DNA of 64,000 nucleotides, taken from Candidatus Obscuribacteraceae bacterium. GTDB taxonomy: Bacteria > Cyanobacteriota > Vampirovibrionia > Obscuribacterales > Obscuribacteraceae. The first letter of the stretch is position 1, and each line of letters opens with the position of its first letter. Made by a program: the position numbers and the translations under genes. This document shows positions 46,062-49,712 of the stretch, in pieces. Below the pieces are notes generated by a model, which saw only the letters and a program-made list of their open reading frames with translations, did no database searches and was not told the origin of the DNA. Location: positions 256,001 through 320,000 of the forward strand of contig JBGAHS010000007.1 in NCBI GenBank assembly GCA_044226015.1, in the 5' to 3' direction.

Positions 46062-46127
46062 TACGTAATTACCACATCTGAGGACACAAGAATTTCACGA
46101 ATCGCGCTTAACTTGAACTCATTCAAG
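46062..46127 (+). promoter_or_regulatory. Conserved upstream element, copy 1
   Basis: About 51/66 identical to 48397-48461 by manual alignment; half-sites every 11 bp. Confidence 0.7.
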
Positions 46128-46129
46128 AA

Positions 46130-46425
46130 AACGAAACAGTTTTTTTTGAATTACAGAACTGTTCAAAACACAGTTTCTTCAGAGGATTCGCCCGTTTCAA
46201 AGTTGACCGTTTCTGCTCCCTCCTAAACAGTCAACTTTAAAACAGACGAAAAAAGGAAACGAGACAATTGCGACCATTTGACAGGTCGTCATTGTAAATC
46301 AGCTAATCATGCTGGTTTTGCTCGTGCATGTACGAAGTAAAAACTGCTTCTGCCAGTGCTTCGTGATTAAGATGATTGAGTAGGTCACCATTTGTGATAC
46401 CAGGGGTCTATTCAATTTCATTAGG
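46130..46425. ncRNA. Candidate structured RNA or long leader (multiple hairpins)
   Basis: Six consecutive stem-loops, several with G-U pairs; no credible ORF. Confidence 0.4.
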
Positions 46426-46500: not shown

Positions 46501-46690
46501 AGTCCGTCCACCCCAATTCTGTATCTTTCAAGCGTTCGATGTCGGTTTTTCGATCCACCTGAATAGTCCGTCCACCCCCATGTTCGAACCATTCTAATAG
46601 TCCGTCCACCCCACAACGGTCCACCCATTAGTTCGTCCACCCCCATGTTCGAACTGTCCGTTCACCCTAATGTTCGTTCTTCCACCTAAG
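46501..46690. repeat. Degenerate direct repeats AGTCCGTCCACCCC
   Basis: Copies near 46501, 46566, 46599, 46630 and 46656 plus fragments. Confidence 0.8.
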
Positions 46691-46797
46691 ACTTCATGTT
46701 GGATTCGCAGCACCCCCCAAGGTGAATCCATTCCGCCCAATGGCTCATGTACAGCGATAAGGTTCGCGTGTGCAAGGCAGGAACTGGAGAATACAAA

Positions 46798-48204
46798 ATG
46801 ACTCACGAATTTGAAGAAAGCAAAAACGATAACACGCGCCACGCACTGGTCGATTTCCTAGATCAGAAGCCCGACTACTCGCGCTCTTTTGACCCCTATG
46901 ATATGTACAGAGGTATCCAGGCAGTTTCCCAGATAGTGGGACGCTCGGACTCTGGTCGCTCACCATCAGACCCTGCACGCATTCCCGATAATGTTGAATG
47001 CGTGGGTGGACAATGCGTAGCTCTCTCTTTGGATGATGCGGCTAAGGAGATGGCTAAGATTTCTGAATCTGCCAACAGAGTGAGTGTTACAGATCACTCG
47101 AATCTTCCAGACAATGTTGAGTGTGTCGGTAATGAATGCCGCGTTCTCAGCCCAGAAGAATTGGCGCAGGAGAAAGCGAAGCTGGCGGGATATCCAGCCG
47201 TTGAGATAACGCAGAATCCCACGCTTCCAGACAATGTCAAATGTGTAGGCAATGAGTGCCGAGAAATGTCACCGACGGAAGCTGCAGCCGAGCGAGCCAA
47301 GATGCATGCTGCGGGAAACAACTTCGAAGTTTATATGCCTAAGGGACAGATTCCAGACAATGTTGTTTGTATTGGAGGCGAATGCCGAATTCTCACTCCA
47401 GAGGAAATCGCAGACGAGAGAGCCAGGTACGAAAGTGCATCTCATGCAGCTTGCTCTTGTGTCAACTGTCACATCCCTGAAAACGTTAAGTGTATTGGAA
47501 ACGAATGTGTTCAGCTCACTCCTGAACAAGTCGCAGCCGAAAAAGCCGGTCTTCTTTCAAATGGCGATGGCAACGTACATATCTCAAGCTGTTGCAAGAT
47601 ACCTGATAATGTTGTTTGTATTGGCGGCGAGTGCAGAGTCCTAACTCCTGAGGAATTGTCGCAAGAACGTGCAAAAATGAAAGGCGCAAGTGAACATGTT
47701 TGCTCTTGCTGTCGAGTGCCAGACAATGTTGAATGCATTGGCGACCAATGCCGAGTTCTATCGCCAGAAGAAATGCAAGCAGAGAAAGAAAGGCTTCGTG
47801 CTGCTGGCGGTTCCGTCAGTATCAGTTCTTGCAAAATTCCAGATAATGTTGAGTGTGTTGGAAACGAATGTCGAGTTCTTAGCCCAGAAGAAGTTGCTGC
47901 AGAGCGCGCCAAGATTGCTGCTTCTGAAAACAAGTACAACAAAGATGCCTGTGAGACACAAACCCCATCCAACGTGGAGTGTGTCGGAGATGAGTGCCGA
48001 CCACTTTCTCCAAAAGAGGCAGTTTCCGAGCGCTTACGCTTGCGTTCCCTTGGTGGCAAAAAGGTTCAAGTAAATCATGAAGCCATTCCAGAAAATGTTG
48101 AGTGTGTAGGCAATGAGTGCTATGAGCTGACCCCTCCACAGATGGCTGCAGAGCGGGCACGAGTCCATGCTGCTAAAGAAGTCTCCTGGTGGCTGAAACT
48201 ATAG
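46798..48204 (+). CDS. Protein of ten ~40-aa PDNVxCxGxxC repeats, function unknown
   Basis: GGAG RBS before ATG 46798; repeats counted directly; own terminator. Confidence 0.85.
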   Translation: MTHEFEESKNDNTRHALVDFLDQKPDYSRSFDPYDMYRGIQAVSQIVGRSDSGRSPSDPARIPDNVECVGGQCVALSLDDAAKEMAKISESANRVSVTDHSNLPDNVECVGNECRVLSPEELAQEKAKLAGYPAVEITQNPTLPDNVKCVGNECREMSPTEAAAERAKMHAAGNNFEVYMPKGQIPDNVVCIGGECRILTPEEIADERARYESASHAACSCVNCHIPENVKCIGNECVQLTPEQVAAEKAGLLSNGDGNVHISSCCKIPDNVVCIGGECRVLTPEELSQERAKMKGASEHVCSCCRVPDNVECIGDQCRVLSPEEMQAEKERLRAAGGSVSISSCKIPDNVECVGNECRVLSPEEVAAERAKIAASENKYNKDACETQTPSNVECVGDECRPLSPKEAVSERLRLRSLGGKKVQVNHEAIPENVECVGNECYELTPPQMAAERARVHAAKEVSWWLKL

Positions 48205-48268
48205 ATTCTATGCAAATCCGGAAAGCAGGCTGGCTGCCAGTCAAAACATATCCGGAACGCATTGAAAT

Positions 48269-48310
48269 AAGCGGAGGCAGTTGCTCCCCAGTTCTGCCTC
48301 CGCTTTTTGT
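48269..48310 (+). terminator. Intrinsic terminator
   Basis: AAGCGGAGGCAG-N13-CTGCCTCCGCTT-TTTGT. Confidence 0.85.
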
Positions 48311-48396
48311 TTTCGCAGCTTTGCGTGGCATGTATGTCTATGCACTGCAAACTAAACAATTACGCAGTTTAACCCCACATATTTAAGTGAAACGAG

Positions 48397-48461
48397 TACG
48401 TAATTCCCCCATACGTGTCACAAGAATTCCACAAATAGAACTTAACTTTAACTCATCGAAG
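48397..48461 (+). promoter_or_regulatory. Conserved upstream element, copy 2
   Basis: CACAA/CACAA/CTTAA/CTCAT at 48419/48430/48441/48452. Confidence 0.7.
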
Positions 48462-48555
48462 GTTGATCGGTGTTCTGGGACTGTCGCTGTTGTTGAGTTG
48501 AGCTGCTTTAAGGGCTCGATTCCCGCTCTCATGCCGGCCTGGAGAAACCTAATAA

Positions 48556-49614
48556 ATGCCACCTGAAGTAGAAGAATCTCGTGCTAAGCCAACGACTCAG
48601 AGCGATGCTCCGCCGAGTTTTGATTTTTTCGGCTTTCACCAGCAAGGAAAAACAATGAGCGACAATAACGCTCTGTCTCAAAAAGATAAGCCTCAGAGTT
48701 CTATCGAAATTACTAATCCATTTTCTTTCAATCAAGGTTTAAGCAAGCAAGAGTCCGGAAGCAAGCAGAACGTTGGACGTGCTAGCGACAACGACAAAGG
48801 AGTTTCGTCCAAGCCGGCAGGAAAAGATGATGTTGGTGCATCGAAAAAGCCAGACAACATGATTTGTGTTGACGGAATTTGTCGCCCGATGACTCCGGCA
48901 GAGATGGAGAGAGAGGCGGCTAAAAGAGCAGGAAAGCATGACGCTACCTTTCCAATTCCACCGTTTGATTTTTCCAAGTATGGCACCGTTGACGGTGGCG
49001 TTAAACAAGCTGGGTATGATGCGCCAGCTGATAAGACAAGCAAACCATCTGACAGTTTAAAAGAACTGCCTAATCTCACACCACCAGGTTCTTCAACAGG
49101 CAGAAGTTCAATTATTGATGCCTATGAGCGTCGGCAAGGAGCACGCCAGGCTGGCGGAGGTGCACTTCCTTCAATAGATGCAATACCAAATAATCCTAAC
49201 CAGAACCCAGGCTCTGACCTGAAACCCTGGACACCTCCTCAAGACAGAAACAATAACAACAATGACAGCATTGACCCATCTGCGAGGGAAGTCCTTCATC
49301 TCTCCAGTAAGGAACAGCTAGATAATGAAATAAAGAACTCAAAAGTACCTGTCATTGTTGATTTTTATGCCACCTGGTGCGGTCCTTGCCAGAGGCTTGG
49401 TCCAAAGCTTGAGTCCTTAGCAAGAGACCAGGGCGGCGCCGTTAAAGTCATTAAGGTTGATGGAGATCAGTTCCCTGAGCTTGTTTCGCAGTACGGGGTT
49501 AGTGGGTACCCAACACTAGTTTCCTTCAAGAATGGTTCTGAGTCCGAAAGAACCAGTGGCGATCAGGCAACCAGCACATTGCAATCGCTTGCTAAAAGGC
49601 TTCGTAATCGTTAG
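48556..49614 (+). CDS. Thioredoxin with long disordered N-terminus containing one PDN.xCxxxxC repeat
   Basis: VDFYATWCGPC, GYPT cis-Pro; PDNMICVDGICRPMTPAE. Confidence 0.9.
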   Translation: MPPEVEESRAKPTTQSDAPPSFDFFGFHQQGKTMSDNNALSQKDKPQSSIEITNPFSFNQGLSKQESGSKQNVGRASDNDKGVSSKPAGKDDVGASKKPDNMICVDGICRPMTPAEMEREAAKRAGKHDATFPIPPFDFSKYGTVDGGVKQAGYDAPADKTSKPSDSLKELPNLTPPGSSTGRSSIIDAYERRQGARQAGGGALPSIDAIPNNPNQNPGSDLKPWTPPQDRNNNNNDSIDPSAREVLHLSSKEQLDNEIKNSKVPVIVDFYATWCGPCQRLGPKLESLARDQGGAVKVIKVDGDQFPELVSQYGVSGYPTLVSFKNGSESERTSGDQATSTLQSLAKRLRNR

Positions 49615-49684: not shown

Positions 49685-49712
49685 AAAAGAGGCAAGCTTA
49701 ACACTTGCCTCT
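49685..49712. terminator. Terminator between convergent genes
   Basis: AGAGGCAAG-N7-CTTGCCTCT with flanking A/T runs. Confidence 0.7.

Follow-up and report, generated by a model that had tools for sequence, protein, structure and literature searches.

A repeated Cx4C unit and its thioredoxin-borne copy in an Obscuribacteraceae bacterium: a possible thioredoxin-recycled dithiol store

Two neighbouring genes were analysed in a 64,000-nucleotide stretch of DNA (the window; contig JBGAHS010000007.1, positions 256,001 to 320,000) from an Obscuribacteraceae bacterium, an uncultured, non-photosynthetic relative of cyanobacteria. Gene 1 encodes a protein of ten Cx4C units and gene 2 a thioredoxin carrying one copy of the same unit. 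The sequence comparisons point, with a probability of about one half, to a thioredoxin-recycled dithiol shuttle that has been multiplied into a thiol buffer. The 27-residue Cx4C module would cycle between dithiol and disulfide and be recharged by thioredoxin, with one unit held on a flexible arm in gene 2 and ten units forming a co-regulated multi-thiol buffer in gene 1. Electrons would pass from reduced nicotinamide adenine dinucleotide phosphate (NADPH) to TrxB, on to the thioredoxin of gene 2 and from there into the units. A gene 1 chain could hold as many as 20 electrons, which the units would hand on to oxidants or oxidised proteins. Cys and His residues of the linkers may add metal binding in some copies. 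A thioredoxin-recycled dithiol is inferred because the unit occurs on three thioredoxin folds, was kept through a domain swap and was once replaced by another Cx4C.

The three thioredoxin-fold carriers comprise a TrxA-like domain (gene 2 and P0008-P0011), a Thioredoxin_7-like domain (G002, G004, G007 and P0014) and a chlorophyte nucleoredoxin, so that homologues of the unit were found in association with thiol-redox genes. The thioredoxin type of the window grouped with canonical TrxA and that of its relatives formed a separate clade. Because a single clade for the ten module thioredoxin domains was rejected (approximately unbiased test on a quick tree of 21 rows, p-AU 8.3e-7) while the N-terminal arms stay alignable at 32-89% identity, the alignments indicate that the thioredoxin domain has been replaced by another type while the unit was kept. 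Homologues or orthologues of the arm-thioredoxin gene without the unit were identified in G003, G005, G032, G308, G154, G230 and G310, adjoining dnaE in the first three and lying outside the genus in the last five, and the arm-plus-thioredoxin gene is, by this comparison, apparently older than the unit. The same arm of the orthologues in G003 (L076:4927-6231) and G005 (L077:6421-7764) holds a different Cx4C, CPRPRC.

A search of 1.84 billion representatives at an E value of 0.001 passed 13 proteins, namely five repeat proteins or pieces, four N-termini of thioredoxin genes, of which one is a fragment, a single protein from an alga, and P0017, P0019 and P0020. The last three matches are Cys-free and helix-only and were dropped. 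The algal protein, P0018, is a nucleoredoxin-like protein of Edaphochlamys in which residues 1-32 match the unit over its full length (E 9.5e-5), and it is the sole match outside the bacterial family that spans both Cys. Follow-up among 43 candidates gave three further algal copies, and the algal cluster includes nucleoredoxin 1 (NRX1) of C. reinhardtii, Cre02.g094100, in which the unit cysteines are C10 and C15. Profile-profile comparison of bacterial and algal units returned a probability of 95.6% over 26 columns, and 17 of 27 residues are identical between the algal and the G004 unit. The C10-C15 pair is listed as reversibly oxidised in two proteome studies (PMC7355495, Table S2; PMC6829209, Table S3). 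No function was given for the N-terminal extension of NRX1 in the literature searched, subscription papers lying outside that search.

Gene 1 encodes a hydrophilic leader of about 60 residues followed by units that start at residues 63, 104, 144, 186, 227, 269, 308, 348, 390 and 431, a spacing of 39-42 residues (Table 1). The longest open reading frame (ORF) begins at 46747, and the start at 46798 is favoured by homologues and by the ribosome-binding site (RBS). A profile built from 11 units bore out the ten Cx4C units that an earlier, sequence-only reading of the window had counted, with the consensus PDNVECVGNECRxLTPEExAAEKA. Unit 1 departs from the ending [LM][ST]PEE given in that reading and terminates in LSLDD. 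The protein contains 30 Cys (6.4%), 10 of them in linkers, and W or WW stands near the C-terminus in eight of nine complete repeat proteins, L047 being without it. The units diverge by 0.61 at third codon positions versus 0.28 at first and second positions, and therefore constraint acts on the protein. The locus lies on one contig with open frames in two sequencing runs, each of them possibly the source of this DNA.

Unit profile and Pfam likewise confirmed the described layout of gene 2, one unit in a disordered arm followed by a C-terminal WCGPC thioredoxin. The active-site motif lies at 49375-49389, and the Pfam Thioredoxin match covers residues 250-346 (E 1.7e-26, 92.7 bits versus a curated cut-off of 23.5 for PF00085). 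The domain missed the TIGR01068 equivalog cut-off (91.3 versus 96.8 bits), and the linker between unit and thioredoxin is of low complexity. No hydrophobic stretch was found at either N-terminus, the best 11-residue hydropathy being -0.23 in gene 1 and 0.17 in gene 2, in agreement with the earlier statement that neither protein has a Sec signal.

Run against 151,213 six-frame ORFs from the 8.19-Mb genome, the unit profile matched only genes 1 and 2, with the next-best match at E 0.56. Of 401 genomes in the class, five gave strong matches, and these five belong to a single genus (the genome itself, G002, G004, G006 and G007), which makes four of the seven other genus members with a unit; by these searches the unit is, in bacteria, confined to one Obscuribacteraceae genus. 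Four marginal partial genome matches (E 0.008-0.01) were dropped. Scans of genome contigs gave no match in the first scan and G002 and G006 alone in the second; the viral contigs scanned gave no unit match and the ESM Atlas no usable feature match. Complete repeat proteins have 5-10 regular units.

No family was named for the unit by Pfam, NCBIfam, PDB sequence, Foldseek or VIA fold searches, as the sequence-only reading had expected, and no characterised structural-disulfide family was matched in the Pfam, NCBIfam, PDB and fold searches. Matches to WCX, Maf_N and TAL-repeat families were dropped, as they span the helix N-cap alone. For the Sec-secreted structural-disulfide repeat families, neither a signal peptide nor a family match was found in genes 1 and 2. 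The repeat is undescribed in the literature searched, a search that did not extend to subscription papers. AlphaFold2 predicted two short strands and a helix, both for the unit alone (predicted local distance difference test, pLDDT, 79.9) and for each unit of the whole gene 1 chain (mean pLDDT 60.5; predicted template modelling score, pTM, 0.29). From the strand register in the secondary structure, the two cysteines would face one another across the hairpin. The fold search gave a best Z of 2.2, with no zinc finger among the matches listed. Classical C2H2 zinc fingers carry two His ligands within the helix; the secondary structure of the unit is compatible with beta-beta-alpha, and the helix His pair is absent, there being no conserved His in a 35-unit alignment.

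The complex prediction that had been proposed as a check, the unit with the thioredoxin domain, was run and gave a weak pass, with a score of 0.47 versus 0.02 for the best control; the docking runs agree in 100% of contacts, with a partner pLDDT of at least 75. In the docking benchmark, scores no higher than 0.60 accounted for the passes of 18 among 157 solved complexes and of both mismatches that passed. TrxB is present in the genome. GshB and BshC were found at cut-off in none of the eight genus genomes, in a search that does not exclude other small thiols, on which weak GCS2-like and EgtB-like matches bear.

The two gene types appear to be related at their 5' ends. Among 4,940 N-termini, the leader profile of the thioredoxin genes found six of seven repeat-protein leaders (E 2e-4 or better), and the reciprocal profile found eight of ten thioredoxin leaders (E 2e-7 or better); the two leaders of the window itself cross-match weakly (E 1.6 and 0.29). 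Both gene types have a common upstream motif and a GGAG-type RBS. Gene 1 likely arose by duplication of the 5' end of gene 2, comprising upstream motif, RBS, leader and unit, followed by expansion. The shared leader, this likely origin and the wider gene set behind the upstream motif are new beyond the sequence-only reading.

Several results weigh against a thioredoxin-recycled thiol buffer. The other three algal copies scored E 0.011-0.33, each alone above E 0.001, and the 27-residue algal match may be convergent; the searches of representatives and of algal candidates found no intermediate between algal and bacterial units. The reversible-oxidation list of PMC7355495 is broad, comprising 9,295 sites in 3,395 proteins and among them ligands of ferredoxin clusters, and because of this breadth the listing of C10-C15 is a sign of reversible modification or protection and not of a shuttle role. 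The two algal lists apparently come from one method, and in the tabulated data C10-C15 was unchanged on nitrogen loss (p 0.62). The weak docking pass may reflect thioredoxin-peptide complexes that are already known. Cys invariance in the 35-unit alignment follows from how units were selected, and degenerate units with one Cys lost occur in P0003, P0004 and P0006. The upstream motif points towards giant leader proteins, not stress genes, and no RNA run holding the locus was found. As the bacterial evidence is drawn entirely from a single genus, the cases are not independent, and orthologues outside this genus lack the unit by profile.

The pairing of the two genes also proved loose and not obligate. 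G004 has a thioredoxin gene with the unit, one unit in total and no repeat gene; the thioredoxin of G006 is without a unit; the repeat gene of G007 is in two frames (L011:8382-9400), with a break at a TGC-rich run that is real or an assembly error; and in G002 the two genes lie 6 kb apart. The L047 repeat gene is followed by about 950 nucleotides before the contig ends and cannot show absence of a thioredoxin gene. Given G004, G006 and G007, the description of the pair as a dedicated relay was too strong. The proposed redox link between unit and thioredoxin gains from the three thioredoxin-fold carriers and from the reversibly oxidised algal pair, and both options offered for gene 1, electron store and metal sponge, still stand.

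According to the second of these options, gene 1 would be mainly a sponge for Zn, Cu or Cd, in which the Cx4C and an upstream C[CH] dyad form four-ligand sites and the part of thioredoxin is to maintain the thiolates in reduced form or to free the metal. Two Cys/His residues do stand directly upstream in 17 of 54 units from nine repeat proteins or pieces, none of them among the first four units of a full chain, whereas the other 37 units, as well as all thioredoxin-borne and algal units, offer two candidate ligands only. Differently worded Cys clusters in the linkers of P0003, P0004, G002 and G007 and a predicted unit fold reminiscent of a classical zinc finger would suit such a role; a Cys content of 4-7.5% would not, and inspection of the neighbouring ORFs by eye recognised no metal-resistance gene. 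Metallothioneins are defined by small size and a very high Cys share, and gene 1, which has 468 residues and a Cys share of 6.4% and was matched by neither Pfam nor NCBIfam, does not resemble them in this respect. A principal role in metal binding is considered unlikely. A somewhat smaller chance is given to a structural role, in which the Cx4C forms a stable disulfide or a hairpin for binding, gene 1 serves as a multivalent scaffold, and the thioredoxin does no more than dock on gene 1 or fold it. The regular 39-42 residue spacing, the conserved Trp tail, the low-pTM (0.29) beads-on-a-string model and a shared unit that could serve self-association are all compatible with a scaffold. Against it, there is no evident oxidising compartment because neither protein has a Sec signal, the unrelated Cx4C of G003 and G005 retains the cysteine spacing and not the surface, and no structural-disulfide family was matched.

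Equally doubtful is the proposal that both proteins are cargo of a non-Sec route common to giant acidic-leader proteins, where they would act as a nucleoredoxin mimic that drains or rewires the thiol redox of eukaryotic prey or host. Such a route is suggested by the other three strong motif sites, which precede genes for hydrophilic-leader proteins, by three further thioredoxin-less genes with the same leader, by the occurrence of the relatives' thioredoxin type in a 1171-residue leader protein, by the resemblance of the unit to an algal protein and by the presence of Tad and pilus ATPase genes. However, searches of the 92% complete genome for a type III system (FlhA/SctV), a contractile system (tail sheath) and VirB4 gave no match, and they gave a single full SecA with no second one; the literature searched names no host for the group; among the 22 motif sites that five relatives have outside the module, only about 5 lie ahead of leader proteins; and gene 2 fails a simple acidic-leader rule. 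A reading that joins several of these ideas, about as improbable as the metal sponge, would see a portable Cx4C hairpin-helix redox module common to green-algal nucleoredoxin and one bacterial genus. In the latter it would have been multiplied into a protein thiol capacitor replacing glutathione, which the common leader would send, with its own thioredoxin, to wherever the giant leader proteins go, perhaps into the cell of an alga or protist.

The coordinates of the module are collected in Table 1.

Table 1. Features of the two-gene module, in positions of the window
Feature	Position	Strand	Basis or remark
Upstream regulatory-like element of gene 1	46062..46127	+	core CACRARAATTYCAC at 46085; 27.8 bits vs control maximum 18.7
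Gene 1 RBS, CTGGAGAA	46784..46791	+	sequence
Gene 1: leader, ten Cx4C units, C-terminal WW tail	46798..48204	+	468 residues; net charge -26
N-terminal hydrophilic leader of gene 1	46798..46977	+	reciprocal leader profiles across homologues; same family as gene 2 leader; copy in this genome diverged
Array of ten Cx4C units	46984..48168	+	each predicted beta-hairpin plus helix; linkers preceding units 5-9 with extra Cys/His
C-terminal Trp-containing tail	48184..48201	+	comparison of complete repeat proteins
Terminator-like hairpin with T run between genes	48266..48314	+	inverted repeat I4 (48266-48308), 93% complementary; absent from consensus terminator scan
Upstream regulatory-like element of gene 2	48397..48461	+	40.6 bits, top site of the genome
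Gene 2 RBS, CTGGAGAA	48539..48546	+	sequence
Gene 2: leader, one Cx4C unit, disordered-type linker, thioredoxin domain	48556..49614	+	352 residues
Single Cx4C unit of gene 2	48850..48930	+	profile match E 7e-14; begins at residue 99
Conserved linker block of gene 2 (AYERRQGAR..G..LP.IDAIP)	49105..49190	+	invariant columns across 10 orthologues
TrxA-like thioredoxin domain of gene 2	49303..49593	+	PF00085, 92.7 bits; clusters with canonical TrxA
Terminator-like hairpin past gene 2	49688..49712	+	consensus scan

The same RBS ahead of both starts was found as described. The 65-bp upstream element said to be the same for both genes is present at both, with 79% identity across 61 nucleotides; it is unevenly placed, about 715 nucleotides ahead of gene 1 and about 140 ahead of gene 2, and is found at other genes too. 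The terminator-like hairpin between the genes suggests two transcription units. The motif was present ahead of all nine module genes examined. With a matrix trained on eight module sites from other genomes and the reversed genome as control (maximum 18.7), five sites above 20 bits were obtained in this genome, belonging to the two module genes and to genes for hydrophilic-leader proteins of 716, 1102 and 1318 residues, for which no Pfam family passed its cut-off. In five genus genomes the core pattern gave 28 matches versus 1 in the control. These lie ahead of six module genes (by construction), about five leader proteins, three members of a signal-peptide family, four other genes and one gene that we take to be TadE-like, and nine have no ORF behind them under the rule used. 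The core looks like a direct repeat with an 11-base period, presumably comparable to sites of OmpR-type regulators.

Multiple copies of the motif were also observed, two in tandem in G005 and three in 550 bases at G003:C179:21856-22406 (L058), where no long ORF follows immediately. Beyond the motif itself, relatives have nothing that aligns with the long 5' region of gene 1. This region includes a 26-bp inverted repeat directly downstream of the motif (window 46187-46250; no Rfam match) and, at 46502-46668 (+), a 13-base GTCCGTCCACCCC-like motif that occurs five times where 0.37 would be expected; these copies are not present in the shorter leaders of relatives. Rfam returned two chance microRNA-type hairpin matches and nothing else.

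Further observations concern the leader proteins. The upstream motif of the module is shared by three giant proteins that have hydrophilic leaders and beta-rich repeats (G000:C11:499762-505713 and C11:1031422-1035387; L013, L014). A leader protein of 1171 residues at G000:C9:74580-78098 has a CGNC thioredoxin-like domain akin to the relatives' thioredoxin type, and the leader words DxF.FHQ and DPY.YHQ recur in three thioredoxin-less genes (G000:C10:571918-573048, C9:307626-308474 and C1:167186-168352). Acidic hydrophilic N-termini were counted in 198 of 4,923 called genes of G000, including many of the longest (3,000-5,850 residues), and the word LPxhxh is enriched in this set (19 of 198 versus 2.7 in shuffles).

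Among known systems, chlorophyte NRX1 (Cre02.g094100, C10-C15) comes closest, having a closely similar 27-residue Cx4C-helix unit N-terminal to thioredoxin domains. It differs in being a eukaryotic multi-domain nucleoredoxin with one copy, and no stand-alone array was seen. FrnE of D. radiodurans (DR_0659) is described as having a C-terminal CXXXXC tail that forms a mixed disulfide with the active site and is absent in some homologues (PMC8945050). Like gene 2, FrnE as described there holds a Cx4C on the flexible arm of a cytoplasmic thioredoxin-fold reductase; unlike the N-terminal unit of gene 2, its tail is C-terminal, single and on a DsbA fold. In class Ia ribonucleotide reductase, residues 754-761 of E. 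coli NrdA contain a Cx4C exchanging with a redoxin pair (PMC11067019). This dithiol exchange resembles that proposed for the unit, whereas the reductase tail is, in that account, disordered, serves its own active site and has neither a described following helix nor repeats. No ribonucleotide reductase or FrnE chain was among 47 PDB matches to the unit at E up to 10, such tails being short and often unresolved. In architecture, gene 2 and its orthologues share with these shuttles a Cx4C pair on the flexible arm of a thiol-redox enzyme, and the unit would work like them, a likeness of kind that need not mean a common family. Metallothioneins and CP12-like, thioredoxin-controlled disordered proteins are, like gene 1, Cys-rich, flexible, acidic and plausibly under thioredoxin control. 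Gene 1 is far longer than either, is modular, has 6.4% Cys and has no Pfam match to them.

The Cx4C shuttles so far described are single tails on ribonucleotide reductase and FrnE. If the thioredoxin-recycled buffer holds true, a folded, portable Cx4C, present in up to ten copies as a protein of its own, would represent a novel kind of thiol buffer, and this in a lineage for which the search for glutathione synthetase gave no match. The finding also offers a testable role for C10-C15 of NRX1 in Chlamydomonas, a tractable organism, and the leader and upstream motif give a point from which to approach the giant leader proteins, still unexplained, that Obscuribacteraceae encode.

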